Assembly: GCA_016706545.1 (NCBI GenBank) | Contig: JADJJK010000031.1 | Location: 85,650 to 114,407, forward strand | DNA length: 28,758 bases | DNA from: Myxococcales bacterium | Lineage (GTDB): Bacteria; Myxococcota_A; Polyangia; Haliangiales; Haliangiaceae | Direction: 5' to 3' | Notes under the pieces: model-generated | Told to the model about the DNA's origin: nothing | Database searches by the model: none | The model's input: the letters and a program-made list of their open reading frames with translations, nothing else | Part shown: in pieces, positions 1,478-19,312 of the stretch | How the letters are laid out: the number at the start of each line of letters is the position of its first letter | Position numbering within the stretch: the first letter of the stretch is position 1 | Translations under genes and position numbers: made by a program

Positions 1478-2210
1478 TCGTCTCTCTCTCTTCTCTCTCT
1501 CAGGTATCTGGGTTCTGAACCAGCAGGGGCTGTGGGCGGTGTGGAGAGGCGCGCAGGCACGCCATCGCCCACGCCGCCCATCCACCGCGTGCGCCTCTCC
1601 AAGGGCTGTGCGTCAACCGCGCCACCTCGCGCCTCACGGCTGCCAAAGCTCGATGGGGCGCGGTTGTCCACAGCCCGCCACCGTCCATAGCCCCGCCATC
1701 GCCGCCCATTCCCCCTCTCTCTCCCTCCCTGGTTCTGGTTCTCTCAACAAAAACAATAGATCTGGTTCTGCGAACCAGCAGGGGCTGTGGGCGGTGTGGA
1801 GAGGCGCGCAGGCACGCCAGCTCCACGCGGCCCACCCACCGCGTGCGCCTCTCCAAGGGCTGTGGACAACCGCGCCACCTCGCGCCTCACGGCTGCCAAA
1901 GCTCGATGGGGCGCGGTTGTCCACAGCCCGCCACTGTCCATAGCCCCGCCATCGCCGCCCATTCCCCCTCTCTCTCTCCCTCCCTGGTTCTGGTTCTCTC
2001 AAATAAAACAATAGATCTGGTTCTGCGACCAGTAGGGCTGTGGGCGGTGTGGAGAGGCGCGCAGGCACGCCAGCTCCACGCCGCCCACCACCGCCTGCGC
2101 CTCTCCAAGGGCTGTGCGTCAACCGCGCCACCCACGCACACCGACGAAGCACTCAGCTCACTGGGCGCGGTTGTCCACAGCCCGCCACCGTCCATAGCCC
2201 CGCCATCGCT
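1478..2210. repeat. Three tandem copies of a ~254-255-bp GC-rich structured unit; copy 3 is truncated at the island junction
   Basis: Units begin at about 1508, 1762 and 2017. Each has a CT-rich/A-rich tail, a palindrome CTGGTTCTGCGAACCAG and a conserved core. Copy 2 has a perfect 20-bp inverted repeat (1856-1875 / 1909-1928). Confidence 0.85.
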
Positions 2211-2226
2211 GTTCACTCGCTCTATC

Positions 2227-2243
2227 TGTGAATCGCATTCACA
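2227..2243. promoter_or_regulatory. Perfect palindrome TGTGAATcgcATTCACA at the start of the low-GC leader upstream of the adenylation operon (candidate regulator-binding site)
   Basis: 7-bp arms with a 3-bp spacer read directly. It lies in the AT-richer leader about 355 bp upstream of the first island gene. Confidence 0.3.
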
Positions 2244-2506
2244 TCGCATCTCGTATTGCCAATCGTCTGCAAGATTGTTAATCTGTGCCGGCAATCAAAT
2301 GGCTATCTCTTCACGTCATAGTAAGGCCGCGCAGCTCACGCTCGAGTCCGCGCGCAAGCCCACCGGCCACGGCGGCTGGCGCCCCGGGGCTGTCGCCGCG
2401 TCGCGGTGGTCAGATTGCCTCAGTGGAACCGCTCGCCGCCATGGGGTAGTTCCGGATCTGACCGCCGCCTATGGCCCGGCGCGAGTCAACGAGAACTGCA
2501 AAACCG

Positions 2507-2533
2507 CCAATAGCTGTTCCCAGTTGCTATTGG
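2507..2533. promoter_or_regulatory. Inverted repeat CCAATAGC-N11-GCTATTGG in the 5' leader of the adenylation gene (candidate operator or RNA stem-loop)
   Basis: Perfect 8-bp arms, about 65 bp upstream of the ATG at 2599. Confidence 0.25.
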
Positions 2534-2598
2534 TGGTTCGCTGTGCGAACCTATCATCCGGGTACCGAATGGTCCCACAACTGTAGCGGCCGCCACGA

Positions 2599-4068
2599 AT
2601 GACTGAAGTCGAGATATCGACAATCGCTCTGATGGTTCGCGAGGCGCTCGATGGGCCTGACCGTCTGTTGGTCGAGGACGGATGGGGGCGATGGGGCCTA
2701 AGCACGTCTCAGACCCTTTCGCTTGCGGAGATGCTCATGGAGGTACTCGGGGACCGGGCCAGTCGACCTCTGGTGGCGTACCTGCAAAAGTCTCGACTCT
2801 ATTACGCATTCACCGCTTGCTGCTTCCTTAACCGCTTGAGTTACTGCCCGATCGATGCATCAAACCCGCTACAGAGGGTGCTCGATGTTGCTGCGCAGTT
2901 GCCAGACGCCATAATTGTCTGCGACAATGAGGAGGTCCTTGCTTCGATCTTGGAGCGAAAGATCGATGGCATCCGCATCAGCGAGGACTTTACCCGGGAA
3001 GATCGAGAGAACCGAGACGCGGTTGCAATGCCCGGGACGAAGAGTCCGCACTATTGTATCGCCACATCCGGTAGCACCGGTACACCGAAGTTGGTGCTGG
3101 TTCCGCATGATCACACGATTCCATTTGTGCGCTGGGCAGTACCCTTCTATAGAATCGGTCAAGGTTGCCGTTGGGCGCAATTCTCAAGCATCGGGTTCGA
3201 CCTTTCGCTCGTTGACTTCTTGTCTGTGGTGTGTGGCGGCGGGGTTCTCATTTCGCTTTCCTCTCAGCTCGACCGCATGCGTCCGGCGCTTGCGGTGAAA
3301 CGATGCCGTATTACCCACTGGCACTCCGTGCCGTCGATGATCCCGTACTTTCTCATCGATTCGGTAGGGGACGATCAGTCCACATGTCAGGTGTTCTCGT
3401 TCTGCGGTGAACCGCTTCAGCGAGCAAATGCAGACAAGCTCATGGCTCGATACCCTGGGGCAAGAATCGTAAATACATATGGTCCAACCGAAGGCACGCT
3501 GTTCTGCTCATTCTTCGAATATCGCCCCAATGACGAGACCGTGGTCGGAGACTTCGTCCCCATCGGACAACCGATACCACCGTGGAACTTCATCCTAATT
3601 CCCGAGGAGCGAGCGGAAAGGCTGGTGCTCATTGCCCCGAACATTGCCGACGGTTATGTCGGAACCGAATCCGCCGCGTTCGCCGCCGTCGATCTGTTTG
3701 GGTTCCGGCTACGCGCTTTCGACACGGGGGACAGGGTGAAGAGGCTTGGGCTACATCTCTATTTTTCACATCGAGTGGACACTATGGTGAAGGTGAATGG
3801 AAATCGCTTAGATCTCGCCGAGGTGGAGGCCGTTGCACAGCGCCTTGGTTTCACCAATCCGATGGCATTCGTGGTGGGAAGCGGAGTAACTTTGGTGGCC
3901 GAAGGAGAGCAAGACGCGGTGACGCTCCTGATCCAACAACTCGGTGAGCACCTGCCGCAGTATGGCGTTCCCAATGTTGTGCGAGTTGTTCCCGCGCACC
4001 CGCGCACCCCAAGCGGCAAGCTCGACCGGCGGGCCGTCCGAAAGTCGCTCGGAGAAAACAGTGAATAG
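2599..4068 (+). CDS. Stand-alone adenylation-domain enzyme (AMP-dependent synthetase/ligase; DltA or NRPS A-domain-like)
   Basis: Core motifs A3 TSGSTGTPKLV, A4 FDLS, A5 NTYGPTE, A7 FDTGDRV, A8 VKVNGNRLDLAEVE, A10 PSGKLDRRA. 489 aa. GC about 50%. Confidence 0.9.
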   Translation: MTEVEISTIALMVREALDGPDRLLVEDGWGRWGLSTSQTLSLAEMLMEVLGDRASRPLVAYLQKSRLYYAFTACCFLNRLSYCPIDASNPLQRVLDVAAQLPDAIIVCDNEEVLASILERKIDGIRISEDFTREDRENRDAVAMPGTKSPHYCIATSGSTGTPKLVLVPHDHTIPFVRWAVPFYRIGQGCRWAQFSSIGFDLSLVDFLSVVCGGGVLISLSSQLDRMRPALAVKRCRITHWHSVPSMIPYFLIDSVGDDQSTCQVFSFCGEPLQRANADKLMARYPGARIVNTYGPTEGTLFCSFFEYRPNDETVVGDFVPIGQPIPPWNFILIPEERAERLVLIAPNIADGYVGTESAAFAAVDLFGFRLRAFDTGDRVKRLGLHLYFSHRVDTMVKVNGNRLDLAEVEAVAQRLGFTNPMAFVVGSGVTLVAEGEQDAVTLLIQQLGEHLPQYGVPNVVRVVPAHPRTPSGKLDRRAVRKSLGENSE

Positions 4069-4321
4069 TGGCACATACGAAATCGCCCGCCGGCTAATTG
4101 CATCTGCGCTCGGCGCGCAGTTGGAGGCGATCGGTCCAACAACAGCCATCTATAAGATTCCGGAATGGGACAGCCTTGGTCAATTGAAGATCGTGGTGGC
4201 CTTGGAGAAGGCGCTCAACGTTAGAATTCTGGATGAAGTGACCTTCGAGTCCCTTGTGAATGTACGAAGAATCGCGGCGTATATCAATAATGTCAGAGCG
4301 GAAAATCACAATGGCAAATGA
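4061..4321 (+). CDS. Small acyl/peptidyl carrier protein (DltC-like), GTG start overlapping the adenylation gene stop by 8 nt
   Basis: Phosphopantetheine-attachment motif EWDSLGQLKIV. About 86 aa. GGAG Shine-Dalgarno 6 nt upstream of GTG 4061. The ORF-track entry 3944-4321 is the same frame with a spurious N-extension. Confidence 0.75.
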   Translation: MNSGTYEIARRLIASALGAQLEAIGPTTAIYKIPEWDSLGQLKIVVALEKALNVRILDEVTFESLVNVRRIAAYINNVRAENHNGK

Positions 4322-5090
4322 GGTAAATTTCGAGGCGGCGGACGGACATGTGGTCCGTGGAACCCATACCCAGGCGCATGCGGAGCGGGGGATGGTCCTG
4401 CTCGTCCACGGCATCACCGCCGATCGCCATGAATGGAGTTTCTTCGACTTTCTAGCAGCGGAACTGCTGGGTCAGGGCTTCAGCTCACTCGCCATTGACT
4501 ACCGAGGGCACGGGGCGTCTTCGATCCCTATTTCGGAATTGAGTCTCGCGGGTGTTGTGCTCGATATCGCTGCGAGTTGGGAATACTGCCTCGAGCGCCG
4601 CCAGAATCCGTCGGCAATCAAGGTGATCGTGGGCAACAGCTTCGGTGGTGGTGCCTCACTCTTGTTCAGCTCATGGAGTGGAGAAATCGATCATGTTGTT
4701 GCCACATGCCCTGTTCTCTCATACGTCGACGACCTCGATCGTGTCAACAGAGCATGGCGGAGTGACCTCCCGACTGGTCGAATTCACTACGCGAGCAAGA
4801 GTCTTCCTTCTTCCATTGTTCCGCAAATGTACCTGTTCGATCTGATGCTGGCGCGGACGACGCGCAACGTGAATCTAACCATTTTCCACGGCACATCGGA
4901 CACCGATGTCCCCATTTTGGCGAGCGAGCAATTTATCGAGAGTCGAGGCAGTGGTAACCTCCACCGGCTCCTAGGAATGGACCATTCGTTCTCAGCACCC
5001 GAAGGAACCGAGAATCGCGCCGCGGTATCGCTTGAATTTCGAAGGCGCGCGGCTCGTGAAATTTCCACCTTTGTCGGAAGCCTCGGGTGA
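4311..5090 (+). CDS. Alpha/beta-hydrolase fold protein (thioesterase or acyl-transfer candidate); alternative in-frame starts at 4290 and 4260
   Basis: HG oxyanion motif (LLVHGITADRHEW), nucleophile elbow GNSFGG, and catalytic Asp/His candidates (TSDTDVP, MDHSF). The ATG at 4311 overlaps the carrier-protein stop (TGA 4319-4321). Confidence 0.8.
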   Translation: MANEVNFEAADGHVVRGTHTQAHAERGMVLLVHGITADRHEWSFFDFLAAELLGQGFSSLAIDYRGHGASSIPISELSLAGVVLDIAASWEYCLERRQNPSAIKVIVGNSFGGGASLLFSSWSGEIDHVVATCPVLSYVDDLDRVNRAWRSDLPTGRIHYASKSLPSSIVPQMYLFDLMLARTTRNVNLTIFHGTSDTDVPILASEQFIESRGSGNLHRLLGMDHSFSAPEGTENRAAVSLEFRRRAAREISTFVGSLG

Positions 5091-5695
5091 TGCTCACCAT
5101 TACCGAACCTCTTTTTCTTGCCGAACCTCGTAGTTGGCCCGAGTGGGACATCTCGCTCGGAGCCTTTGTGACTGTTGAAGCGAGTCCTGAAGCTCCCGTG
5201 AGAATCAGTCCCAGGTGCCGTGTAGGGCACCATGTCTACATTGGCTCGGCTGTAACGCTATGTAATGGAGTCCGACTTGACACCATGAGCTTTGTTGGCG
5301 CTCGAACGACAATCGGAGAGGGCTCCGCAGTTCACAGCGTGAAGGTATTCGAAGCAGTGACGATTGGTCGCAACACGTTTATTGGGGGAGATGTGTCTAA
5401 CTGGACCATCATCGGCGATGATGTGACCTTCATGGGGCGAATCGTGCATACCTATCGGAAGGCCGGAGGCAGGGATGACTGGGTGGGCGCAGGACCACAG
5501 CCATCGCCCCGGATTGGGGATAAGGCGATCATCGGTGAGAACGCGCTTCTTATCGGTGGCATTGATATTGGCCGCGGTGCGTACGTGTCGGCCGGGGAGG
5601 TCGTCAAGTACGATGTTCCCGCCGGGCACCTTGCGATCAACGGAGAACTCATTCCTCTCTCTGCCTTCCGCGGGTTCATCAAGAGTCGCGAGTAG
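5087..5695 (+). CDS. Hexapeptide-repeat (left-handed beta-helix) acyltransferase
   Basis: Repeated [LIV]-G-x-x-x-x hexads (VYIGSAVTLCNGVRLD, VFEAVTIGRNTFIGGDV, IGDKAIIGENALLIGGIDIGRGAYVSAG). ATGA start/stop overlap with the upstream gene. Confidence 0.8.
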   Translation: MMLTITEPLFLAEPRSWPEWDISLGAFVTVEASPEAPVRISPRCRVGHHVYIGSAVTLCNGVRLDTMSFVGARTTIGEGSAVHSVKVFEAVTIGRNTFIGGDVSNWTIIGDDVTFMGRIVHTYRKAGGRDDWVGAGPQPSPRIGDKAIIGENALLIGGIDIGRGAYVSAGEVVKYDVPAGHLAINGELIPLSAFRGFIKSRE

Positions 5696-5709
5696 GGCAC
5701 GAGGCCCGT

Positions 5710-6852
5710 ATGAAACTGCGAGTGTTCGTCAGCCATAGTTTTCATGCCGAGCACCACCTGCACGGCAAGCTTGATGGTTTTCGTAACTCTGTGGATGCTG
5801 CTCGGGTTGAGGTGCTGTCGCATGCCAAACTGGGGTTGCGGGATGTCTCAATTGATCTCCACTTTGAGGATACGGCGATTGGACAGTTGCTACCTGCGCG
5901 GACACGAATAGACATCGAATGCGCTGACATCTTCATAATCGATATTTCAGCCCGCACTGCGAACACATTTTTTGAACTCGGGTATGCTCGTGCTTTGGGT
6001 GTGGAAACAATTGTGATTCAACAACGCTCTATCCAAGAATCGATTCCGGCGAACGTGGCCGACCTTCTTGTCGGATTCTATGGGACCACAGATGAGCTAC
6101 GGCAGATTGTCGCGAGGCGACTCAGCGAGATTCTGGGAGATGTGGCGTCCTTGGGCGCGAGCCGACCGCGCGACCGATGTTTCTGGTTCGAACCGGATGT
6201 TAGAGAGGTGCATATCGTGTGTGGCAGCGAGCCTGAGGCGACGCGATTTGCCAACCGGGACTCCGACGACTACTTGCTTATCGACAACTTTGACGACCGC
6301 GATGCTCTCTTTGCGCTGAGCACCTTGCTGTCTCGCGCATACCCGAACGCGAACTTGGTCCGCCACACCTCGGCGAACCTGCCCCCGGACATCTACCACT
6401 CCAATCTGGTTCTTGTTGGTGGCCCTCTTACAAATCGTGTCGCCGCGGAGATGATGGCGGAACTTAACGTGAAAGTTAGATACCTTGATGGCGACGATGG
6501 CATTGAGTTTCAGGGGCCACGTGGGCTTGAGATCGTACGATCCCAGCGGGATGCGTCAGGTGTGATCGTTGCAGACGCAGGGTATTTTGGCCGTTTTCGG
6601 AACCCATTTGCGCGTCGGAACCGCATCATCATGTGCCAGGGATGCCATACATTCGGAACGCTCGCAGCGAGTGCCATCCTTGCGGACGACAATCAGGCGC
6701 AGGACAACGCACGCTACCTTGAGAAGCTTTCCGGTGTAGATGCCCGAGCAATCGCTCGAATAGAGTGCGTATTCTCAGTCCGAGTTCTCACTAACCGACG
6801 GGTACTGCCTGCAGCCGTCACCGAGCCCTTAACATTTGTACATGTTTCTTGA
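5710..6852 (+). CDS. Two-domain protein: N-terminal TIR/NDT-like (flavodoxin-fold) domain plus C-terminal Rossmann-like domain with SLOG/LOG-like glycine motifs
   Basis: N-terminal: VFVSHSF...DLHFEDTAIGQLL...ADIFIIDISARTANTFFELGYARALG, matching the TIR / nucleoside 2-deoxyribosyltransferase-like pattern with a conserved Glu. C-terminal: LVLVGGPLTN...IIMCQGCHTFGTLAASAIL resembles the LOG/SLOG GGxxG...PGGxGTxxE motifs. GAGG Shine-Dalgarno; 14-bp gap after the LbH gene. Domain calls are motif-level only. Confidence 0.65.
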   Translation: MKLRVFVSHSFHAEHHLHGKLDGFRNSVDAARVEVLSHAKLGLRDVSIDLHFEDTAIGQLLPARTRIDIECADIFIIDISARTANTFFELGYARALGVETIVIQQRSIQESIPANVADLLVGFYGTTDELRQIVARRLSEILGDVASLGASRPRDRCFWFEPDVREVHIVCGSEPEATRFANRDSDDYLLIDNFDDRDALFALSTLLSRAYPNANLVRHTSANLPPDIYHSNLVLVGGPLTNRVAAEMMAELNVKVRYLDGDDGIEFQGPRGLEIVRSQRDASGVIVADAGYFGRFRNPFARRNRIIMCQGCHTFGTLAASAILADDNQAQDNARYLEKLSGVDARAIARIECVFSVRVLTNRRVLPAAVTEPLTFVHVS

Positions 6853-7509
6853 CAGCCGATGACGGATTTCTTTTCGGAAGAAGAACGTAAGATATTCGTT
6901 GATGTCTTTCGCCATCGGGATGTAATGCTCAATCGAGCGTTCAGCGTCTGCAAGGAGTCCAATGTTCACGTGGTCAACGATGTATCCGCGAGTGTCAAGT
7001 GCATGTGTGAGGATGGCAATATCGATCGCCCAGTTATTCGGCAAGTCGACTAGTGCGAAATCGCATCGGTTAAACAGGTAGGTGCCGCTTAGAGGGAGAG
7101 GGATGGTGTCCCATTCCGGACGGTACAGCTGAAAGAATGGACGAACGACGAGGTTCGTTACCGGAAATGTGTCGTAGGGAGAGTGGAAGATCCCGCGCTT
7201 GAGTGCATGCTTGGGGCCAGTTCGGAGCAAGTCTACCCACTCAGTTTGCCAGTCCCTGATGTCCGCATCGGTCCGAAGCACCAGGTCCTCTCGAGCAGCG
7301 CTCATGCCGACCTTCATTGCGCAGCCGAGACCAACGTCAAGGCACTGAAGTACACGAGCCCCGGCTTCACTGGCCTGCTCAGCTGTGTGATCATCCGATG
7401 CGTTATCGACAACAATGACCTCGCTGACGAGCTTGCTGTCGAGCAAGCGCCGCACAACACTACCAACAGTCTCCTGCTCATTCCGGGCTGGCACTACAGC
7501 TGAAATCAT
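6829..7509 (-). CDS. Family-2 glycosyltransferase (GT-A fold; dolichyl-phosphate-sugar synthase-like)
   Basis: ISAVVPARNEQETVGSVV...EVIVVDNASDDHT...LRTDADI (DxD). GGAG Shine-Dalgarno before the ATG at 7509. 3' end converges with and overlaps the upstream gene by 24 bp. Confidence 0.85.
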   Translation of the reverse strand: MISAVVPARNEQETVGSVVRRLLDSKLVSEVIVVDNASDDHTAEQASEAGARVLQCLDVGLGCAMKVGMSAAREDLVLRTDADIRDWQTEWVDLLRTGPKHALKRGIFHSPYDTFPVTNLVVRPFFQLYRPEWDTIPLPLSGTYLFNRCDFALVDLPNNWAIDIAILTHALDTRGYIVDHVNIGLLADAERSIEHYIPMAKDINEYLTFFFRKEIRHRLSRNMYKC

Positions 7510-7891
7510 GAAATCTCCAGATACGAGGCGGGCACGTGAGACAGTGCGCAGGGTCTTGCGCTTGGAAGCTCAAGCGACTTCATCATGACAACCGGAATTC
7601 TCTCTAGCCGTAGGCGCCAGCTGTGCAGGCGCAGATCTTGCGGCTTCACTTGAATTTTGGCATGAGTTAGTTGTACTGGCATACGGTAAGCTCAGAAATT
7701 CGCTGTGGGAGAAACGAAAGTAGTGTCATGGAGGTTCCGCTACGAAAATCGACTCGGTCGCAACCGCCAAGCCTGGTTGCAGTTCAGACTGAGAGTGAGG
7801 TTCTTTCCTCCAATAGACTTGGCGAGTTTCGCGCGATCGTCACTGTCAAATCGTGCGGTGTGAGAGTGTTGTGATCGCCATCTTCGGCTCC

Positions 7892-8869
7892 CTAGATTCT
7901 CTTTTGCTCGACCAGCCTGCGGTAGTGCTCGCCCAGCAACGTCAGCTTGCAGGCCTTGCTTTCCATGGCCGCGTGCCACATGTGAGGCGCGTCAACGGGC
8001 ACGACTAGGTTTACTCGGTTGTACTTCTGGAGAATCGCAAAGACATGCGTGTGCTCAGGATTGGGTGGTGGCATCCCTGGCTTGCGCCCTTGCATCTCCG
8101 GCTCATACGTTGGGTCCAGTGAAAACCGATACCCCGGCGCTGGAAAGAACTCAGCAATACGTTGAAGCTCCGCAAGACTGATCGAGGGAATCGCCTTCCT
8201 GAGCGACACAAAGCTCTTAACGTTGGTCTTGAAGATGGGGCGCTGATCCCAAGGCCCAAGTGATTGATCAATGTGCGCGTATACACTTCCCGGCGTGATA
8301 TCTCCGACGAGATTGGCGGCACTTCCGACCAGAGCATCTGCAAATAGCGCTGTAAACACGCCGCTCCCATTGCGTTCGGACGCATATTGCTCTGACGTCG
8401 ACGCCGTAAGAATCGTAGTCCCTTCCTTGAGCTCGGCAGTCGAAACGGCTTGGCCTCCAGGACTTCCGGCAATCCCGGAGTGGCAGCTATCCAGCGCAAT
8501 GACCTTGTTCTTCGAGCGTGAGTTATTGGCCAAGATCAGGATCTCAGAGAGAGAGACGCCTTCATCGCCACGGCGAGAGTCGGAGGCCAGGAGGTAGCCG
8601 CCCGTTGCCTCAATGTGTCCGTGACCCGCAAAGTAGAGGAGAGCAATCTCGTCATCCGTCGAGAAAAGCTCCTCGATCGAGTCTTTCAGCTCCGCACGCG
8701 GAACCTGGTCGTTCGGGCTCGTACCCGTTAGCGGCTTTACGGCGAAGTTAACCGTGCCATCGGCGTTTCGTTCAAGCAGTGGCTTAATCGAGTGTGCGTC
8801 GTTGACACATCCGTGCAGCGGTGATGTGTGCTCGTAATAATCAATCCCGACGACCAGCGCTTTGCGCAT
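7892..8869 (-). CDS. Caspase-like peptidase (C14 / caspase-HetF-type p20 domain) with a ~90-aa C-terminal extension
   Basis: [10 protein letters not shown]...GCVNDA...LLYFAGHGH (catalytic His)...IALDSCHSG (catalytic Cys). Strong GGGAGGG Shine-Dalgarno. Lies 26 bp downstream of the TIR-like gene on the same strand. Confidence 0.85.
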
Positions 8870-8895
8870 TGTCCCTCCCTTGCTTACGTGCGTAT

Positions 8896-9282
8896 CTACA
8901 GCGACTTAATGAATGTTGCGATGTTGTCCCAGGTCCAATTAACGATCTTTATGCCGCTGAGTTCTGCCGGAAGACTAGTGGGGCGATTGTCCGCGGAGCA
9001 GTAGACACCAAGGAGCCTTCGCCCCTCGGCCTTGGCGCATGAGGCTTCCCACAGTGCGCCATCCCCCTTCGTTGTGTTCTTGCTAACGAGTACGATCACG
9101 CCATCGCACCCCTTGATGCGGGAACGACAATTTGTCTTCCACTTCTCGTCCCAGGGCTCCTTCACGGACATGTCCACGAACTCGAACGGCGTGCTTTCAT
9201 TCTTGGATTGTCCCACCAAGAAGTCCCGTGACGTCTTGTCCTCGATGGCGAACGCAATAAAGACCCGCTTCTTCCCGGACAT
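8896..9282 (-). CDS. Small stand-alone TIR-like domain protein (ThsB / DUF1863 / MTH538-type)
   Basis: [16 protein letters not shown]...[36 protein letters not shown] fits the TIR-like architecture (betaA VFISF, S-x-W-x-x-E helix, conserved Glu). 128 aa. AGGGAAG Shine-Dalgarno. Confidence 0.75.
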
Positions 9283-10420
9283 ACTGCTTCCCTTTCTTCG
9301 ATGCGCTAGATGGCGTGCTTCGGAACCGCGTCAACGATACTCTGAGTGTTTCAGGCGACCATTTCGCTGGCGACGTCTTGCACGGCTCGGGAGGCTCGCT
9401 CGTTCCCGCGTGGATGTATCCGGACGATCGGCTTGTCGTACGACATGGCGATCTCGCTCTCTTCCTGCATCCAGCCAGAGTGCGATGCATACACGCCAGA
9501 GAGCATTATTAACACGATGTGGACTGGCCGAGAGTGGCGGTCCAAGCCCGCGCGTAGCTGCGCGCCGGTCCCACCATGAAGTGGTCGTGTTGAGGGACCG
9601 AGAACTGGGCAGCATGCCGACACCGGAACGTCGCCAATGTGTCCTCGAACGGTGTCGTCCGCGGTGTCGAAGTCACCACTCGCAGTGAGGAACTCTGCCG
9701 AACGCACCTCAGGTAGACTCAGAATGTAGAACACTCCCGTAGACTCACTGGCAATCCCTCCGGGAGGGTTAGGTGCTGGGGGATTAAGCACTGGGAGTGT
9801 TCCGGCGAGCTGGCGATTCCAACAGTATCACGGGGGATGGCGCGTAGGGAGGTTGGGAAATTCGCTCGATCGTGATCACCCAAACCAGTCCATCGCGATC
9901 CACCGATGTGGTCCATCGCGATCAGTGGCCCGACCAGTAGGAGAGGAGAGTACTCGATGGCAGGATGATGTCCCTGGACCGCGGAGGGGAAGCCGCGAAA
10001 AGACGGAAGGAATCGAGCGAGAGACGACTGTTGTCCCGATGTTGGATCCCGAAGTCGTGAGGGCGCTTGGGGAGCCCTTTCCTCGGTGTAGGACAAGCTG
10101 TCACCACCGGCCTCCGAGGGTCCCATTTCCACCGCCATCACCGGTGACCTGGGGCCTACCCGATGGGAGCCATCTCGGTGTGGTCGCGAGACGGGGTCAA
10201 GGGTCGCTCCGACGACGAGCGCAGCGAGCTTGCCCTTGAGGCCGGCGCGCGACCGCACCACTCTCGCCGGTGGGGGTGGGCCCCTGGTCCCGGTGGTTCT
10301 GCTACCCTCGATCGTCGGCGGCGACAACAAGCCGCGGCGTAAGTCTGCGTGATCTCGTCGACCTTCAAATCCATACGGATTTGAGCTGCCGTCTACAGTG
10401 ACGACTAACCGTTAGGGGCG

Positions 10421-11875
10421 CTAGCGCGCGCTCATAGGTAGGATCTTAGGACCGGCCTCCGAGGAGGACCGGCCGGGAGATCCCGGGGGGATCGACAAGC
10501 GACAACGACAGCCTTCACCCTGCGGTTACCACACCCAGCACACGGAGACTGCGTTGTCTACCCCGCACCTTACCAGGATGCGGACGGCGCTCGCACGCGC
10601 GCTGTCCGCCGATGATGTCAACCAGCTCGGCCGTGACACCGGCCAGAGCGAGAGGCTGCGAACGGTCACGCCGCACCGCCTGTTCCTCTCGACCGTCGCC
10701 GCGCTCGCCGGTGGGAAGGTCGAGTCCCTCGCGGACCTCCTCCGCGAGTTCAATCATCAGAACCAGGTCACCGTCGCCTACAAGGCGTTCTACAACCGCC
10801 TCGCTCGACCCGGCTTCGCGAGCTTCATGCAGCAGATGTTCGCGCGGCTCGTCGAGAGGGGGGGGGCTGAGCGTCCGGATGCTCGAGCCCGAGGGGCACG
10901 CCGCCGTTGCTCGATTCAAGGACATCGTGATCCAGGACGGCTCTTCGTTCGCGCTCAAGAAGACGCTGCAGCACGTGTTTTCGGGACGGTTCACGAACCG
11001 CGAGCCAGCCGCGGTCGAGGTCCACGCGACCTACAGCGGATTCTCCGACGAGGTGTCCACGGTCTCGATCGCTTCGGACAGCGAGGCTGAGCGCCAGTTC
11101 CTACCCGCGCCGTCGACGCTGGCTGGGCGCCTGCTTCTTGCAGATCGTGGCTATCCCAGCACGCAGTACTTCGACGCGGTTCGCGCCCACGGTGGGAGCT
11201 TCATCGTGCGGCTCAGCCGAAGCCACGACCCGTGGGTGTCGGCCGCGTGGGTGCAGGGCAAGCAGGTGCTGCTGAGAAAGCCGACGCGGCTGTCGCGGTT
11301 CATCGAGCGGAACTCCAATCGCCGGATGGATCTCGACGTCGAGTACGAGAGAGGAAAGGACGTATTGCGCTTCCGCGTCATTGTTCTGCCCGGCCGGGAA
11401 GCGACGATGACCCGGCTCTGCACGAACCTTCCGCGCACACCGTTCTCCCTCGACCTCGTGTCGCGGCTGTACCGCTTCAGGTGGCAGATCGAGCTGCTCT
11501 TCAAGGAATGGAAATCCTACGCGAACCTCCACAAGTTCAACACCGCCAACGAACACATCGCCGCGGGCCTGATCTGGGCCAGCCTCTGCGCCGCCGTGCT
11601 CAAGCGCTTCTTGGCTCACGCCGCTGAGCTCGTCGGCGGCAGGGCAATGTCTACCCGACGCGTGGCGATGTGCGCCGCCCACATCATCGACGAACTGGCG
11701 GCCGCGCTCCTCGCCTGCATCAGCATCGCGGCCGCGTTCAGCGACGGCCTGGCGTTCCTCCTGGCCAACGCCCGCCGCTCGAACCCTGTCCGCGACCGCA
11801 AGACCGGGCGCCTACGGGCCGGCCTGGTCACCGTCGGGGCCCGTTCCTAAGTGATCGCCTATGAGCGCGCGCTAG
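10421..11875 (+). mobile_element. IS4-family insertion sequence (about 1.45 kb) with ~30-bp imperfect terminal inverted repeats
   Basis: Left end CTAGCGCGCGCTCATAGG...CTTAGG (10421-10450). Right end CCTAAG...CCTATGAGCGCGCGCTAG (11846-11875); the 18-bp core is a perfect reverse complement. Encodes a DDE transposase. No clear target-site duplication is visible. Confidence 0.85.
10554..11850 (+). pseudogene. IS4-family DDE transposase split by a +1 frame change in a G9 homopolymer (10858-10866)
   Basis: N-terminal part in frame 0 (10554..~10866). The remainder is in frame +1 (..11850) with LLLADRGYPSTQYF...SFIVRLSRS and RWQIELLFKEWKSYANL (YREK region). Removing one G joins the two into a ~430-aa transposase. 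Confidence 0.8.
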
Positions 11876-12044
11876 CGGCCGCGGCTGCCAGGCCCATTCG
11901 TCGGAGCTGCGCGTCCGTGTGCTGGCCACCGGACTGGCCACGTATCCCGACGTGACCGTGGTCTGCCAGCGCGCAGAGTAGGCGCGCGGTCGCGACAGGC
12001 GGTCGCAACGCTGAGAGTCACCGGGACAGTGATAGCGTGACGCC

Positions 12045-12977
12045 GTGAACGAGGCTGCGTCAAAGCTGGTGTGCGCGGTGTGCGGGCAGCTCGCGCAAGG
12101 CGCGCCGGAGCGCGCGCGGGTGGTGAGCAACGTGCGGCGCCTGGGGGCCGAGGAGTTCGAGGTGTGGCGTTGCTCGGCGTGCCGCTCGATCCACGCGGCG
12201 GGCGCGGTCAGCGACGCGGAGCTGGCGGCGTACTATCAGGACTACCCGTTCGCGCGCGGCAAGCGCTCGCGGGTGACGAGGTACCTGCACGGGCGGCTGT
12301 GGCGTCGCGTGGCGCGCGTGGGGATCTCCGGCCACGCCAAGGTGCTGGACTACGGCTGCGGCGCCGGGCTGCTGGTGGCGGATCTCTGCGAGCGCGGCCT
12401 TGATGCCGCTGGCTACGACGCCTATACGCCGGCCTTCCAGCGTCCAGCGCTCCTGCAGCAGCGCTACGACGTGGTGCTGGCGCAGGACGTGCTGGAGCAC
12501 GTGGAGGATCCGCTGGCGCTGCTCGAGAGGCTCGGCGCGCTGTGTCGGCCAGGTGGGGTGCTGGCGATCGGTACGCCAGACGCCAGCGCCATCGACCTGG
12601 CGCGCCCGTCGCGCTGGAAGCACTCGCTGCATCAGCCGTTTCACCGGCACCTGCTGGCGAGCCCTGCGCTCTTGGCCGCGGGCGCGGCGCGCGGCTGGCA
12701 GCTCCTCCGCTACTACCCGCGTTCGTACGCCAACACGCCGGTGCCCACACTGAACTTGCCGTACCTGCTGCGCTACCTGCGCGCGGTGGACGACACCATC
12801 GACGTCGCGTTCGACCCGCCCGCGGTGCGGCTCGCGATGTTCTCGCCAGCGGCGCTGTGGGACGCGCTGTTTGGCGCGCTGCGCTGTCCGGCGAGCGATG
12901 GGCTGGCGGTCTTTCGCGTGCCGGAGGCAGCTTTGCCGAAGCCGCCAGCACCGCCACCGGTCAGTGCAGGCGGGTGA
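12045..12977 (+). CDS. Class I SAM-dependent methyltransferase with N-terminal Cys4 zinc-ribbon
   Basis: CxxC...CxxC pairs at the N-terminus. Motif I VLDYGCGAG. Acidic motif II DVVLAQDVLEHV. GTG start. Confidence 0.8.
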   Translation: MNEAASKLVCAVCGQLAQGAPERARVVSNVRRLGAEEFEVWRCSACRSIHAAGAVSDAELAAYYQDYPFARGKRSRVTRYLHGRLWRRVARVGISGHAKVLDYGCGAGLLVADLCERGLDAAGYDAYTPAFQRPALLQQRYDVVLAQDVLEHVEDPLALLERLGALCRPGGVLAIGTPDASAIDLARPSRWKHSLHQPFHRHLLASPALLAAGAARGWQLLRYYPRSYANTPVPTLNLPYLLRYLRAVDDTIDVAFDPPAVRLAMFSPAALWDALFGALRCPASDGLAVFRVPEAALPKPPAPPPVSAGG

Positions 12978-13641
12978 TGGTGCCCTTGGAGATCGCGCCG
13001 CCTTCTCCGTAGCTCTCGCCTCCGCTGGTGATCGCCGCGATGGTCCCACCTTCGAAGCAGGTGGTGCTGGTGCCAGCGACGCTGGCCTCGACATCCACCG
13101 AGACGGTACACCAGCGATCGTCGCGACGGGTCTGGTACGCATACGAGGCCGGGGCAGACTTGAGCGGAGGCTCGTGGCCCACGCGGGGGTGGGACGGCAT
13201 GATCGCCGGTCCGCGGGTGAGCTTGCGGATCGCGGCCAAGGTCAAGATGGGCTCGTGGGAATGCCAGAGCCCGCGCGCGGTGGCGACCCAGTCGCCCTGC
13301 AGCTCGTGCAGCGCGCGGAGCGTGCTGCTGGCGCCGGGCGGGAGCTCGCAGGTGATAGACGCAACAGTGGCGGCACCGAGCCGGCGCACTTGCTCGACCC
13401 GGCAGTTCGCCGTGCCGTGCTCCTGCACGTCCGGGCTCGGCTTGTCGTGGACGCCCCAGGTGAGCTCTCGCTCGATCTCGTACCTCCAGGTGGCAGCGGC
13501 CTCTAGCATGCCGGCGTAGGGCGGGGAGTCGGGCGCCGCGCTCGCGGGCGCGGCTGCCCACGTGGCGCAGGCGGCGATCAGCGCCAGGGCCGTCAGGCGC
13601 GGAGCGGCAGGGTGGGGCGCGGTCGATGTGGTGGGCGTCAC
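12961..13641 (-). CDS. Hypothetical secreted protein (signal peptide); proposed GTG start at 13641, the track ORF extends to 13758
   Basis: N-region and hydrophobic core ...PRLTALALIAACATWAAAPASA followed by a non-repetitive mature region (RYEIERELTWGVHDKPSPDVQEHG...). The upstream extension runs into AT-richer intergenic sequence. Confidence 0.5.
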   Translation of the reverse strand: MTPTTSTAPHPAAPRLTALALIAACATWAAAPASAAPDSPPYAGMLEAAATWRYEIERELTWGVHDKPSPDVQEHGTANCRVEQVRRLGAATVASITCELPPGASSTLRALHELQGDWVATARGLWHSHEPILTLAAIRKLTRGPAIMPSHPRVGHEPPLKSAPASYAYQTRRDDRWCTVSVDVEASVAGTSTTCFEGGTIAAITSGGESYGEGGAISKGTITRLH

Positions 13642-13744
13642 GTGGTGAGTCCTTCGTGGTTCACGTTCGTTCCAAGGCCCAACGCGGAGGACTGGGCTAA
13701 GATCTTGCCTGCCACCGGCAACCCCACAACTGGACACGAGGCAG

Positions 13745-15025
13745 ATGATCAAGATCACGCTTCAGAGGTCGTTTGTCGCAGGCCGCGCGAGCCGCGCGCT
13801 GCAGGCGATGATCGTGATGGCCGCGACGGCCGCGACGGCCGCGAGTGGCTGCGGCCCCAGGGTGTCGCCTGCGCAGGTGCCAGCCGAGCCGCCGCCGCAG
13901 GTCGCGCCGGACTCACCGGCGCCGCCGGCGGCCAGCGCGCGCGCGTCCGCGAAGGTGCCCACCTCGCCGCGGGGCGTTGACGCGGCCGACCGTGAGCCCG
14001 CAGGGCCCGAGGAAGGAGGCGTCGCGGGACCGGACGCGACCGAGGCGCCCGCTGCGCAGGGCGAGCCAGCGAGCGCAAGGGCACCGGCGCTGGTGGCGCT
14101 GGCGGCGGCGCTCACCGAGGCGAAGGTCAGTGTGCTGGAGATGTCGCCGCTAGAGCACGAGTGCGCCAACCTGCCAGCGCGGGCGACCCTGATCTCGATG
14201 AACCTGCCCGGATCGGCGCAGGACTGCGCGGTCGGGCAGGGCAGGAGCGTGTGTGTGCCCGCTGTCCGCAGGCCGGACAAGCTGCGCCAGACGCTGTGCG
14301 GGGCCGGCATGTCGGCGAAGCCAGCGGGCTGGCCGCCGGCGCTCGAGCGGGCGCTGGATCCGCTGGTCCGCATGGGTTGGCGGGTTCGCCCGATGGACGG
14401 GCGCGGAGCGCCGCCCGCGCTGGCTGCGTATGATCCCATGGGCGCGGTGAGCCTGCTGGTGAGCGACGGCGTCTCCTGGCAGGTGATGAGCGAAGCGCTG
14501 CCCTCGACGGAGGAGCAGGGCCCGCACGCTGGGCCACGGGCGGTGATGCGCGCTGCCGGGCTGGGCCACGGCGCGAAGTACGCGGTGGTGATCGACGAGT
14601 ACGAGGGCGGCAGCGAGAGCGGGTGGCAGACCACCTGGCTGTTCATCTTGTGCGGCGAGGGGCTGGAGTTGACCGTGTGTACGCGCAAGGCCATTGGCGC
14701 GCTGGTGTGGAGCCTTGGGCCCGGCGAGCGAGCGGCGTACCGGCGCGGCGGCGCGAGCCTGACCCGGCGTCCGCACCTGGCGGTGTCGTTGGCGCCGAGC
14801 CTGGCCGCGAACGCGACGACCTTGCGGCTCAAGCTGACCCGGCGGACCTTGCCGGCGAAGCTGCGCGATCGCTTCCAGCTCACCCCACCGGAGTGTGAGC
14901 CCTCCGGCGATCCGCTGGAGCCCGGGAGCTGCGATCCGTGGTCGGCCATGGACGCGCTGCGCGCCGACGCCGGGGATTGGCGCTTCGACGGGCAGGCCCT
15001 CGTGCGCGCTGGCAGCGAGCGGTGA
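13745..15025 (+). CDS. Hypothetical lipoprotein (Pro/Ala-rich linker plus Cys-containing globular C-terminal domain)
   Basis: Signal peptide with lipobox (MAATAATAASGC). GAGG Shine-Dalgarno 3 nt before the ATG. The competing 433-aa minus-strand ORF is Ala/Ser/Arg low-complexity and looks like an artefact. Confidence 0.55.
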   Translation: MIKITLQRSFVAGRASRALQAMIVMAATAATAASGCGPRVSPAQVPAEPPPQVAPDSPAPPAASARASAKVPTSPRGVDAADREPAGPEEGGVAGPDATEAPAAQGEPASARAPALVALAAALTEAKVSVLEMSPLEHECANLPARATLISMNLPGSAQDCAVGQGRSVCVPAVRRPDKLRQTLCGAGMSAKPAGWPPALERALDPLVRMGWRVRPMDGRGAPPALAAYDPMGAVSLLVSDGVSWQVMSEALPSTEEQGPHAGPRAVMRAAGLGHGAKYAVVIDEYEGGSESGWQTTWLFILCGEGLELTVCTRKAIGALVWSLGPGERAAYRRGGASLTRRPHLAVSLAPSLAANATTLRLKLTRRTLPAKLRDRFQLTPPECEPSGDPLEPGSCDPWSAMDALRADAGDWRFDGQALVRAGSER

Positions 15026-15079
15026 CGGCGCTGCGGTGACGGCGCTGCGCGGACGGCGGGCACGTCGCCGGACTGCGCC

Positions 15080-15123
15080 CAGTTGCCGGTCAGTTGCCGG
15101 TCAGTTGCCGGTCAGTTGCCGGT
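15080..15123. repeat. 11-bp tandem repeat (cagttgccggt)x4 spanning the stop codon of the sugar dehydrogenase gene
   Basis: Four perfect head-to-tail copies read directly. The unit length is not a multiple of 3. Confidence 0.9.
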
Positions 15124-16605
15124 CTGCGCCGGCTGGCGCTCGAGCTTCCACACCGTGCCGGTGAGGCTGACCAGGTACAGCTCGCCGTCGCTGTCGGTGC
15201 CAAAAGAGGAGATCTGTGAGAGCACGGCGCGGCGATCTAGCGCCGCACGCCAGTCCCAGTGGTCGCGGGCCCAGCCGGTGCGTTGGCCGCTGCCGGCGGC
15301 GGTGTCGCCTGGATCGCGCGTGAAGCGAAAGCTGCGCAAGAGGCTCGTGCAGTAGTCGGCGTAGAAGTAGGCGCCGGCCAGCTCGGGCAGGGCCTTGCCG
15401 CGATACACGACGCCGCCGGTGATCGAGCAACCCTCGTCGTGGGAGTACTCGGCGATCGGCGGCGTCAGGCCGCGTCGGTCGCAGGTGCGCGCGTTGTAGC
15501 AGTGGTTGCCCTCGGCGATGTTCCAGCCGAAGTTGTGGCTACGCGGGTCGCCGCCACCGACGACGTGAACGGACTCCCAGCGGCTCTGGCCGACGTCTCC
15601 GATGAACAGGTCGCCGGTCTGGCTATCAAAGGCGAAGCGCCACGGGTTGCGCAGGCCCCAGTGGACCAGCTCCGCGGCGGGCCGCCCTTTGCCGCCTGCG
15701 CCGCCTGCGCTGCCTGCGCCGACGCCGCCTTTGCCGCCTGCGCCGACGCTGCCTGCGCTACCTGCGCCGACGCTGCCTGCGCCGACGCCGTCGACGTCGA
15801 GGCGCAGGAGCTTGCCGAGGAAGGTCCTGCGGCTCTGGCCCGAGCCCTTGGGATCTCCCGCCGAGCCGCCATCGCCGAGCCCGGTGTACAGCTTGCCGTC
15901 GGGGCCAAAGGCGAGGTGGCCGCCGTTGTGGTTGGCGTAGGGCTGGTCCACCGCGAGCAGCTCGCGCGCGCTGGCTGGCTCCACCTGCGTGCGCGCGGAG
16001 TTGGCGCGATACTCGACGATGCGCGTGTCGCCAGCGCGGTCGGTGTAGTGGACATAGAGCTTGCGGTTGTCCGCGTAGCGCGGGTGAAACGCCAGGCCCA
16101 GGAGGCCCTGCTCGTTGCTGGTCGACACCTTGCCGATCAGATCGAGGAAGCGCTCCTTGCGCACGACGCCGCCTTCGAACACGCGGATGGCGCCGGCTTG
16201 CTCCACCACATACAGGCGCCCCGGCTCGCCGGGCGCCGCGGTGACCAGCACGGGCCGGCGCAGGCCGGACATCACCTTGGTCAGCCGCAACGTGGCTGCC
16301 AGCGCGGCGGGCACCGGCGCCAGCGCGTCGCTGCCAGGCGGGGGCCGCGTTGCCGCCGCCGCCCTCGCAGCAGCGCCCGGAGCCGGGGCCGGAGCCGGAG
16401 CCGGCGGCGTGGCCGGAGCCGTCGCCTTGGCCGGCGCGGCGCGCGCCGCGGCGGTGGCGGTCATCGGCGCCGGCTCGGAGGTAGGCGGCACATCGAGCGG
16501 TTGCGCTGAGACGGTGCTCCTCTCCGAGGAGCACGCGAGGCAGAGCCAAAGCAGAGCAGGAAGTCTGGCACGCACAGCCTCACCATGTCGCCACCTGGCC
16601 GGCAA
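15112..16605 (-). CDS. PQQ-dependent soluble glucose/sorbosone dehydrogenase-family beta-propeller lipoprotein (YliI/GSDH-like) with an inserted Gly/Ala/Ser repeat
   Basis: LGLAFHP, NHNGGHLAFGPDGKLY, GKLLRLD, GLRNPWRFAFD, GDLFIGDVGQSRWE, HNFGWNIAEG. Signal peptide with LAC lipobox. Internal (GAGSVGAGSA)n insertion encoded by nucleotide tandem repeats at about 15690-15790. Confidence 0.85.
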   Translation of the reverse strand: MPARWRHGEAVRARLPALLWLCLACSSERSTVSAQPLDVPPTSEPAPMTATAAARAAPAKATAPATPPAPAPAPAPGAAARAAAATRPPPGSDALAPVPAALAATLRLTKVMSGLRRPVLVTAAPGEPGRLYVVEQAGAIRVFEGGVVRKERFLDLIGKVSTSNEQGLLGLAFHPRYADNRKLYVHYTDRAGDTRIVEYRANSARTQVEPASARELLAVDQPYANHNGGHLAFGPDGKLYTGLGDGGSAGDPKGSGQSRRTFLGKLLRLDVDGVGAGSVGAGSAGSVGAGGKGGVGAGSAGGAGGKGRPAAELVHWGLRNPWRFAFDSQTGDLFIGDVGQSRWESVHVVGGGDPRSHNFGWNIAEGNHCYNARTCDRRGLTPPIAEYSHDEGCSITGGVVYRGKALPELAGAYFYADYCTSLLRSFRFTRDPGDTAAGSGQRTGWARDHWDWRAALDRRAVLSQISSFGTDSDGELYLVSLTGTVWKLERQPAQTGN

Positions 16606-16688
16606 GGCAATGTCGAGGTGGCCTCGTCGGGGCGCGGGCAGCCCGCGGGCAGGCGTCGGGCAGGCCGCGGGTAGGCCGCGGGCAGCCT

Positions 16689-17710
16689 TCAGGTCATGGC
16701 GGCGATGACGGCCTTGGTGAAGTCCGCGGTGCCCAGCTTGCCGCCCAGATCTCCGGTGCGGGTCTCGGCGTTGGCCAGCGCCGCGTGCAAGCCGCGCCGC
16801 AGCCGGCTGGCCGCGGCGCCCTGCTCGACGTGATCGAGCAGCATGGCGGCGGTCAGCATCATCGCCGTCGGGTTGGCGACGCCGCGGCCGGCGATGTCCG
16901 GCGCGGTGCCATGCACCGCCTCGAAGATCGCGCAGCCGCCGTCGCCGATGTTGGCGCCCGGCGCCACGCCCAGGCCGCCCACCAGCCCGGCGATGAGGTC
17001 CGAGAGGATGTCGCCAAACAGGTTCATGGTGACGATCATGTCGAAGCGCTCGGGGGCGATCACCAGCTTCATCGCGGTGGCGTCGACGATCATGTCGTCG
17101 AAGGCGATGTCCGGATAGCGCTTCGCCACCTCGCGGCCGGTGTCCAGAAACAGGCCGTTGGACAGCTTGAGGATGTTGGCCTTGTGGACCAGCGTCACGC
17201 GCTTGCGCCCGTGGCGGCGCGCGTACTGGAAGGCATATTCGATGATGCGCTCCGAGCCGTAGCGCGTGATGATGGCGATGGACTCCGCCGCCGAGCGCCG
17301 CGGATCGACGTAGTGCTCGATGCCCGCGTAGAGATCTTCGGTGTTCTCGCGGATCATCACGATGTCGACGCCGGTGTAGCGCGACGGCACGCCGGGGATG
17401 GTGACCGCCGGCCGCACGTTGGCGTACAGGTCGAACTGCTGGCGCAGCGCCACGTTGACGGAGCGGAAGCCGGCGCCGATGGGGGTGCCAAGCGGGCCCT
17501 TGAGCGCCACCTTGTGCCGCTTGATCGACTCCACCGTGGCGGCGGGCAGCGGATCGCCGTGGCGCTCGGCCGCGGCCATGCCGGCGGTCGCTGGGTGCCA
17601 GTCGATGGCGCCGCCGGCGGCGGCGACGGCCTCCAGGGTGGCGGCGGTGATCTCCGGGCCGATGCCGTCGCCCTCGATCAGCGTGACCTGCGGGCGCTTC
17701 ATGGATTCAC

Positions 17711-17714
<4 letters not shown>
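16689..17714 (-). CDS. Isocitrate/isopropylmalate dehydrogenase family protein (likely NAD-dependent isocitrate dehydrogenase); probable ATG start at 17702
   Basis: VTLIEGDGIGPEI, NVALRQQFDLYANVRP, VHGTAPDIAGRGVANP. 4-bp overlap with the upstream regulator gene. Confidence 0.9.

Positions 17715-19312
<1,598 letters not shown>

Follow-up and report, generated by a model that had tools for sequence, protein, structure and literature searches.

What is the block of low-GC DNA that interrupts a GC-rich stretch of a myxobacterial genome, where did it come from, and what do its genes do? The question is raised by 28,758 nucleotides (nt) of a Myxococcales bacterium of the Haliangiaceae (contig JADJJK010000031.1 of assembly GCA_016706545.1, positions 85,650 to 114,407), referred to here as the window and numbered from its first letter. 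An earlier account of this DNA, made from its letters and open reading frames (ORFs) and called here the sequence-only reading, had described a genomic island with several unusual genes inserted at the end of a tandem repeat. Based on base composition, homology searches and the comparison of gene neighbourhoods, positions 2210-10415 are very probably an acquired defence island with two components, an anti-phage system of the type IV Thoeris class and a mobile six-gene cassette. The island itself is ordinary; the cassette is the novel lead. The genes and gene remnants of the island are as follows.

2599-4068, plus strand: cassette gene 1, a stand-alone adenylation enzyme of the type of DltA and of the adenylation domains (A-domains) of nonribosomal peptide synthetases (NRPS) (Pfam AMP-binding, E 4e-29)
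4061-4321, plus strand: cassette gene 2, a carrier protein of 86 amino acids (aa) with a DSL serine motif and a GTG start (PP-binding, E 2e-5)
4311-5090, plus strand: cassette gene 3, an alpha/beta hydrolase of the Hydrolase_4/S33 type (Pfam; start set from homologue alignments)
5087-5695, plus strand: cassette gene 4, a hexapeptide acyltransferase of the left-handed beta-helix (LbH) fold (Hexapep, E 4e-12)
5710-6852, plus strand: cassette gene 5, p380 (380 aa), with a TIR/nucleoside-deoxyribosyltransferase (NDT)/MilB-like part and an S_layer_C/BcsB-FD-like part
6829-7509, minus strand: cassette gene 6, a soluble family 2 glycosyltransferase (GT2) of 226 aa (Glycos_transf_2; NF010496 GpgS, E 4e-29)
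7892-8869, minus strand: a caspase-like Peptidase_C14 protein of 325 aa (Pfam, E 6e-16)
8896-9282, minus strand: a short TIR protein of the ThsB type, 128 aa (Pfam ThsB_TIR, E 5e-7, above the cut-off)
9324-9791, minus strand: a degenerate second TIR gene of the EcTIR type, recognisable in its C-terminal half only

The foreign character of the block is seen in its composition. By segment, GC content is 0.713 (1-2209), 0.559 (2210-9282), 0.613 (9283-10415), 0.666 (10416-11880) and 0.716 (11881-28758). Sliding windows gave 0.69-0.76 in both flanks and 0.52-0.61 over about 2250-9500, then a ramp of 0.60-0.65 up to an insertion sequence (IS) of the IS4 family, 0.64-0.66 across this element and 0.72 from about 11750 on. 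A likelihood fit with two change points placed them at 2205 and 10060, and a finer model added 9520 and 11560. The 1-kb windows of island and flanks have separate ranges of values, with a maximum of 0.577 in the island and a minimum of 0.681 in the flanks (flank mean 0.715, standard deviation 0.018). For the GC content at third codon positions (GC3), the eight genes of the island gave 0.57-0.74, five genes of the flanks 0.87-0.95 and the IS4 transposase gene 0.83. The low-GC island, 8.2 kb in length, therefore has the deviant composition, the deviant codon usage and the sharp edges by which genomic islands are recognised. The sequence-only reading had put a fall from about 70% to about 50% GC at position 2209 and a rise behind the IS element, to be checked by windowed GC and codon usage; the check reproduced both the GC shift and the GC3 shift. 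The place of the fall was confirmed (2205-2210), its depth was overstated (the level inside is about 0.56), and GC does return to 0.72 after the IS4 element (10416-11880). The portion 9283-10420 was also correctly described as intermediate in GC (0.613 to 10415) and devoid of intact genes; it holds the degenerate second TIR gene.

That the region is native and long resident, with an atypical composition for functional reasons, would agree with the finding of no empty site, integrase or att site. Protein function does not, however, explain a GC3 gap of 0.3 over eight functionally unrelated genes; moreover, both boundaries are sharp, the closest relatives of the cargo (up to 75% identical) belong to other phyla, and the right end is decaying. 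A native origin is regarded as extremely improbable. Horizontal acquisition, in contrast, is well supported by composition and cargo distribution, because GC and GC3 step at both edges and the cargo has its relatives in unrelated phyla.

The component with a described counterpart is the TIR-caspase pair. The TIR gene is located 26 nt upstream of the caspase gene, both on the minus strand. Its product is 48% identical over its full length (E 5e-44) to the validated protein PsTIR, the sequence of which was taken from Table S2 of the type IV Thoeris paper (bioRxiv 10.1101/2024.10.24.620036), and Glu79 is kept, in an LWEA motif, at the position of PsTIR E79. The reference for the caspase was the neighbour of the EcTIR gene (product 100% identical) in E. 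coli 165, EcTIR being identical in 14 complete E. coli genomes. The island caspase is 42% identical to this protein over residues 1-325 (E 7e-89), in an alignment that takes in the C-terminal domain, and it keeps His83 and Cys129. The C-terminal domain is suspected by the authors of the published system to bind the signal, and PsTIR E79Q and PsCaspase C129A each abolish defence (bioRxiv 10.1101/2024.10.24.620036). The published detection rule asks for adjacent TIR and caspase genes with at most one gene between them; here a TIR with the catalytic Glu and a caspase with the His/Cys dyad and the C-terminal domain are encoded by co-oriented, adjacent genes. Based on homology and on the catalytic residues kept, positions 7892-9282 are assigned to type IV Thoeris. 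A search by sequence for solved type IV Thoeris structures returned none, only metacaspases and "chaperone Tir" with weak E-values. The caspase family is large (more than 8000 scored matches), and the island member is 64-75% identical to proteins of Nitrospira, a Solirubrobacterales metagenome-assembled genome (MAG) and other distant hosts, with 69-75% for its best matches; in Nitrospira japonica a short ThsB_TIR gene is found directly upstream of the caspase homologue.

As in the published system (bioRxiv 10.1101/2024.10.24.620036), the pair forms a two-gene operon with the TIR gene upstream of that for a caspase of about 325 aa, has Glu79 and Cys129 at the same positions and is located on mobile, defence-rich DNA. 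It differs in its myxobacterial host, in being known here from sequence, in the extra, degenerate TIR gene of the EcTIR type, and in the adjoining six-gene cassette, which is not part of the published system. On infection the short TIR of that system makes N7-cyclic ADP-ribose (N7-cADPR), whereupon the caspase-like protease becomes active and cleaves after arginine (bioRxiv 10.1101/2024.10.24.620036). By analogy with published systems, phage infection would here lead the TIR protein to turn NAD+ into N7-cADPR, and the protease would then cleave many proteins after arginine, resulting in abortive infection. In E. coli 165 (NZ_CP020509.1, 3886579-3887956; L084) the type IV Thoeris pair was observed within a prophage, between the lysis genes and antiterminator Q, a moron-like placement in a lambdoid phage.

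To the right of the pair, the minus-strand ORF 9351-9791 matches the ThsB_TIR profile at positions 61-99 only (E 9e-4). By tblastn, EcTIR residues 66-129 match 9515-9324 with 50% identity, the alignment being interrupted in frame by a stop some 13 codons from the end, and the N-terminal half of EcTIR was unmatched. Judged by these matches, 9324-9791 is a decayed second thsB gene. The catalogue of type IV Thoeris systems (Table S1) has a column "Additional TIR" (bioRxiv 10.1101/2024.10.24.620036), and two TIR genes precede the caspase gene in L091, one of the related loci introduced below.

The second component, the cassette, spans 2599-7509, about 5 kb. Its five plus-strand genes follow each other closely or overlap, and the gene for the GT2 enzyme is convergent with the p380 gene and overlaps it. 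The product of gene 1 matches TIGR01733 (E 1e-59) and DltA (E 5e-46), its best solved relatives are the A-domains of LgrA and DltA, and the core motifs TSGSTGTPK, YGPTE, GDR, PSGKLDRR and FDLS are intact in its translation, the last of these carrying the Asp that binds the alpha-amino group. Gene 2 overlaps the stop of gene 1. The product of gene 4 gave weak matches to LpxD and NeuD/PglB, with serine and sugar acetyltransferases as solved relatives, and that of gene 6 has as solved relatives GpgS and MpgS (glucosyl- and mannosyl-3-phosphoglycerate synthases). A DltA/NRPS-type A-domain beside a small PP-binding protein is also the arrangement of DltA/DltC D-alanylation systems and of the loading modules of type II NRPS. 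Unlike these, the cassette lacks DltB, DltD and a condensation domain, and the partners are an alpha/beta hydrolase, an LbH acyltransferase, a GpgS-like GT2 and a TIR/NDT-like protein. With neither DltB (MBOAT) nor DltD found, and with the DltA- and DltC-like matches below equivalog cut-offs, the locus does not qualify as a Dlt system.

The most unusual product is p380 (NCBI MBK7538027.1, locus tag IPI49_22170, 100% identity). A second island protein is likewise 100% identical to an NCBI entry of a "Myxococcales bacterium" MAG. Only 23 close relatives were found in 5.8 billion sequences by a word-indexed search, and a profile search of 1.84 billion representatives gave 109 clusters of the family at E <= 1e-30. 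Weak Nuc_deoxyrib_tr matches were obtained for the N-terminal domain in 18 of the 23 members and weak CAP12/Pycsar TIR matches in three. A conserved FVSHSF motif (F6, H9 and F11 invariant, S8 and S10 nearly so) is accompanied by the invariant residues D78 and E89, the latter in ELG. The domain comes closest to the CMP hydrolases MilB and BlsM, the nucleoside 2-deoxyribosyltransferases, DNPH1 and TIR domains, which form one fold class with a catalytic Glu. It differs from them in that its Nuc_deoxyrib_tr and TIR matches are all below curated thresholds and in that p380 has an additional C-terminal domain of 230 aa. This second domain matches S_layer_C weakly in 17 of the 23 members and resembles the glycan-associated domains of BcsB, S-layer anchors and the N-terminal domains of GH84 and GH115 enzymes. 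Elsewhere it is found alone or fused to a CHAT protease (P0209), a PNP_UDP_1 nucleosidase, an NAD-binding Rossmann domain or a helix-turn-helix domain (fusions in P0209, P0240, P0184 and P0253). It may be a widespread sensor or adaptor domain of conflict systems, because such fusion partners are typical of them. An AlphaFold2 model of p380, built from the 23-sequence alignment, had a predicted local distance difference test score (pLDDT) of 84; compared as a whole with the Protein Data Bank by Foldseek, it gave only matches of low template-modelling score, to bilobed folds of periplasmic binding proteins.

The contexts of six relatives were looked up, and the gene order of the cassette is held in all of them, at 31-62% protein identity. 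They are as follows.

L085/L086, Kordiimonas: integrase and recombinases as neighbours
L087/L088, a soil contig: neighbours with weak PADLOC matches to defence or candidate genes (a TIR-PRK fusion, PDC-S07 and others)
L089/L090, a Solirubrobacterales MAG: integrase upstream, ThsB_TIR and caspase downstream
L091: two TIR genes and a caspase upstream
L092/L093: bona fide Gabija about 0.9 kb away (GajA E 3e-233, GajB E 3e-217) and a gene for a type IV secretion system coupling protein
L096: a partial cassette at a contig end, with an integrase

Identity to the orthologues is 39-48% for gene 1, 39-62% for gene 4 and, for gene 3, 43-50% in L085, L087, L089, L091 and L092, with a partial match only in L096. 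Orthologues of the carrier protein, of 78-94 aa, are encoded at the same position. Convergent orthologues of gene 6 (50-55% identity) are present in L085, L087 and L092, and in the actinobacterial-type versions (L089, L091 and L096) a GT1/GT4 enzyme takes the place of the GT2. In every context with visible flanks the GC content of the cassette is about 0.07-0.20 below them, and an integrase is found beside it in three (L085, L089 and L096). The cargo is thus common to distant hosts (Kordiimonas, a Solirubrobacterales MAG, metagenome contigs and Nitrospira), as in genomic islands, and the cassette is a conserved unit transferred between phyla. The adenylation and carrier protein genes, the 380-aa protein and the GT2 that the sequence-only reading had listed are parts of this one conserved cassette.

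A gene for the octameric membrane protein 8xMP was observed beside the cassette in L085 (9888-10325; PF24838, E 3e-29) and L092 (5377-5871), and 8xMP may be an alternative partner where the TIR-caspase pair is absent (L085, L092). In L091 the gene right after the caspase gene (5027-5503) encodes 158 aa with a weak match to DNA_processg_A, of DprA/SLOG-like fold (E 0.004); this product could be an extra signal-binding component.

With the window counted there are seven contexts, and in three of them (the window, L089 and L091) type IV Thoeris adjoins the cassette, each time in a different geometry. The cassette and the TIR-caspase pair could be a single extended system: the TIR signal would be made, modified or degraded by the cassette, or the caspase armed or regulated by it. 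Among about 38,000 genomes, type IV Thoeris has been detected in no more than hundreds, and against this rarity three adjacencies, each with a different Thoeris variant recruited beside the cassette, speak for a connection, as do the TIR/N-glycosidase-like domain of p380 and the fusion of its C-terminal domain to a caspase-like CHAT protease in P0209. However, four of the seven contexts are without the TIR-caspase pair, thousands of TIR-caspase pairs are without the cassette, and the validated type IV Thoeris systems function as two genes (bioRxiv 10.1101/2024.10.24.620036). Orientation and side also vary between the contexts, so that cassette and Thoeris share no operon. The p380 proteins of L089 and L091 are 85% identical while their caspases are 40% identical and located on opposite sides of the cassette, which points to separate juxtapositions. 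One extended system is considered unlikely.

The families of the cassette genes suggest another explanation. All six products are from generic biosynthetic families, and the cassette might be unrelated to phage defence, being a mobile cluster for biosynthesis or the cell envelope (an aminoacylated glycoside, or Dlt-like decoration) that shares integration hot spots with defence genes. In PADLOC-DB v2 no match was obtained for the adenylation enzyme, the carrier protein, the hydrolase, the LbH transferase or the GT2, and p380 gave a weak match to a TIR effector (E 0.0019). The likeness of the p380 C-terminal domain to glycan-associated domains and the 8xMP gene adjacent in two contexts point in the same direction. 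On the other hand, known or candidate defence genes are directly beside the cassette in five of the seven contexts, the cassette showed neither DltB/DltD nor a transporter gene (transmembrane prediction was not run), and the fusion partners of the p380 C-terminal domain (CHAT, PNP and TIR-like) are typical of conflict systems. A role outside defence is judged to be rather doubtful.

We tentatively propose, with less than even confidence, that the cassette is an undescribed multi-enzyme anti-phage module that makes an aminoacylated or acylated compound or signal of the glycosyl-nucleotide type and acts alone or with the TIR-caspase pair, the C-terminal domain of p380 serving as ligand sensor. 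No description of the cassette was found in PADLOC-DB v2 or in the literature searched. Based on domain content and neighbouring genes only, the adenylation enzyme would load an alpha-amino acid onto the carrier protein, and the hydrolase, the hexapeptide transferase or both would transfer an acyl or aminoacyl group to an acceptor, either a sugar or a nucleotide. A hexose would be added by the glycosyltransferase, and p380, with its TIR/N-glycosidase-like domain, would supply or process a nucleotide. The outcome would be a small glycoside or nucleotide with such modifications, synthesised in the cytoplasm and most likely serving phage defence.

How the island came to its present place was examined at its edges, which are made up of the following features.

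1517-2209, no strand assigned: a structured tandem repeat of 253 bp, 2.7 copies (Tandem Repeats Finder), of host-like GC, forming the left boundary
2210-2598, no strand assigned: the non-coding leader of the island (GC 0.48-0.51 at 2200-2300)
9792-10415, no strand assigned: intermediate-GC DNA with no recognisable gene (GC 0.56-0.75 in 100-bp windows from 9800-10400)
10416-11880, plus strand: an IS of the IS4 family (NF033592, E 4.5e-46; DDE_Tnp_1) with inverted repeats at 10416-10477 and 11819-11880
11880-11981, plus strand: the middle part of a Uma2-family endonuclease, a remnant of host GC whose translation runs ...SSELRVRVLATGLATYPDVTVVCQRAE to a stop (weak Pfam match, E 0.014, positions 51-80 of 172)

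At the left edge, the repeat period is 253 bp and not the 255 bp given by the sequence-only reading. Copy 3 reads ...ccgccatcgc / tgttcactcg at 2209/2210, where copies 1 and 2 go on cgcccattcc. Because copy 3 diverges here, the breakpoint is inside repeat unit 3, about 60 nt short of the natural unit end, and not at the end of the array, where the insertion had been placed. In the leader, no Pfam match was found in the covering ORF or in four translated frames (2205-2600). Within it a GC-rich patch (0.72-0.76 at 2300-2450) with a palindrome at 2372-2399 was observed; it has no Pfam or Rfam match and may be either a structured element or a piece of the host's DNA. A scan of the island for promoters and terminators gave fewer sites than shuffled controls.

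The repeat array itself is located just 3' of a sigma-54 activator gene. A single unit folds with -131 kcal/mol (z = -7.6 against shuffled controls) into long, very stable hairpins with a CT-rich tract at the end. It could consist of genes for small RNAs, serve as a regulatory array or be a mobile repeat. The repeat matches no family in Rfam, an exact 25-mer of it has no match among the metagenome contigs, and it is not present downstream of the orthologous activator gene in L001. In the Cystobacterineae, pxr is located downstream of a sigma-54 activator. A Pxr-like tandem small RNA was considered for the repeat and dropped: Rfam at E <= 1 gave chance miRNA hairpins only, and the nearest relatives (MAGs of Haliangiales and Kofleriaceae) are without the repeat.

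At the right edge, the ORFs of 9792-10415 had no Pfam, NCBIfam or PADLOC match, a six-frame Pfam search gave only PCP_red (E 0.11, taken as chance), and ORFs of the related cassette loci had no matches in 9500-10425 or 2205-2600. This segment presumably represents what decay has left of the island's right end. The IS4 element abuts it, as the sequence-only reading had noted, with inverted repeats from 10416; on direct reading, the well-matched part of its ends runs from 10420 on the left and to 11877 on the right. It resembles the IS4 family in its DDE_Tnp_1 transposase and in terminal inverted repeats of about 20 to 62 nt. In contrast to that family, the transposase is split in two frames near 10880-10900 (ORF 10554-11090 covers NF033592 positions 1-99 and ORF 10612-11850 positions 101-331) and no flanking direct repeat, that is, no target-site duplication, is present. 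The element is therefore not an intact IS and, judged by its frame, is probably inactive. The Uma2-like fragment behind it is truncated at both ends, its 5' part was not found left of the IS4 element, and it looks like a truncated host gene that marks the right-hand host DNA.

A composite or one-ended transposon built on the IS4 element could have brought in the block or be moving it, and an IS that abuts the right edge without a target-site duplication is indeed what an IS-mediated rearrangement would leave. Such a transposon is nevertheless very unlikely: the window holds a single copy, with no second IS4 and no solo inverted repeat at the left edge, the transposase is frameshifted, and the cassette orthologues adjoin tyrosine or serine recombinases and not IS4. 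In addition, with a GC3 of 0.83 the IS comes near the host range and clearly exceeds the island genes; it is therefore more likely a resident that arrived later. The integration machinery was probably lost. In the proposed course of events, the IS4 element would have landed at the right edge and a deletion next to it would have followed; such events would account for the lack of a target duplication and of an integrase, for the truncation of the Uma2 gene and for the decay of the right end.

Several points weigh against an acquired defence island. Its usual machinery is missing: no integrase domain was found in the ORFs, in six translated frames of 9500-10425 or in four of 2205-2600, the window contains no tRNA gene, and there is no att-like direct repeat. 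The search for such a repeat that the sequence-only reading had called for, with the left junction as query, found no copy near the right end. An integrase or recombinase, a tRNA or att target and flanking direct repeats, by which genomic islands are also recognised, are thus absent, and of the earlier description as classical horizontally acquired DNA the acquisition is supported and the word "classical" is not. The nearest genomes in the species-representative set are MAGs of Haliangiales and Kofleriaceae, with a sigma-54 activator 75-77% identical (best segments 81-85%); they show no synteny downstream of it, so that no empty site was found in a close relative and acquisition rests on composition and cargo distribution. 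In an empty site the array would be expected to run on ...ccgccatcgccgcccattcc... and lead to a complete Uma2-like gene. Searches of phage and plasmid collections returned no p380 relative. With regard to function, expression and activity of the Thoeris pair in this host are a prediction from sequence, the defence role suggested for the cassette is guilt by association in seven contexts, and its putative chemistry is read from generic enzyme families; save for the weak TIR match of p380, the cassette proteins have no PADLOC model match.

Finally, the sequence is that of a MAG, and at both edges there is a repeat (on the left the tandem repeat, on the right the IS), the kind of place where an assembly may be joined wrongly. 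The low-GC block could on this ground be an assembly chimera joined at the tandem repeat and the IS, and no second genome confirms the junctions. This would, however, require two independent misjoins that lead back into the same host-like DNA at either side, and the tandem repeat and the IS4 element are themselves host-like in composition, which is unexpected in a donor of 56% GC. The gradual climb of GC over 9300-10400 and the decayed TIR gene at the right end are as in decaying resident DNA, and the same cassette is found in comparable low-GC islands of an isolate and of other genomes, for example Kordiimonas. We consider a chimera highly improbable.

An acquired defence island accordingly remains the preferred explanation. 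In common with other defence islands it has lower GC, atypical codons, cross-phylum cargo, clustered defence genes, an IS and decay at an edge; it is unlike them in having no integrase, tRNA target or direct repeats and in a left junction inside a structured repeat unit.

The genes outside the island are those of the host, and the main ones are listed here.

65-1447, left flank: FHA/sigma-54 activator
12045-12977, right flank: methyltransferase
17711-19312, minus strand: second sigma-54 activator, with a response-regulator receiver domain, adjoining an isocitrate/isopropylmalate dehydrogenase gene

Farther right of the methyltransferase gene are genes for a glucose/sorbosone dehydrogenase, the isocitrate/isopropylmalate dehydrogenase and this second sigma-54 regulator, which is 6 kb right of the island and belongs to the host backbone. 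Among metagenome contigs, relatives of the methyltransferase were 42-44% identical only and on short contigs. Inside the left-flank activator gene, a 9-bp repeat, CGCGTCTGG, is present in about six copies (1171-1232); it encodes a (GAS)n linker ahead of the C-terminal helix-turn-helix domain and could be a length-variable tract.

With the TIR-caspase pair, a defence system described in 2024 gains a member from the myxobacteria. To our knowledge, carrier-protein-dependent biosynthesis is part of no described anti-phage system. If the cassette does defend against phage, it would represent a new biochemical logic in bacterial immunity, and a function would be given to a family of TIR/N-glycosidase-like proteins that comprises more than 100 sequence clusters.

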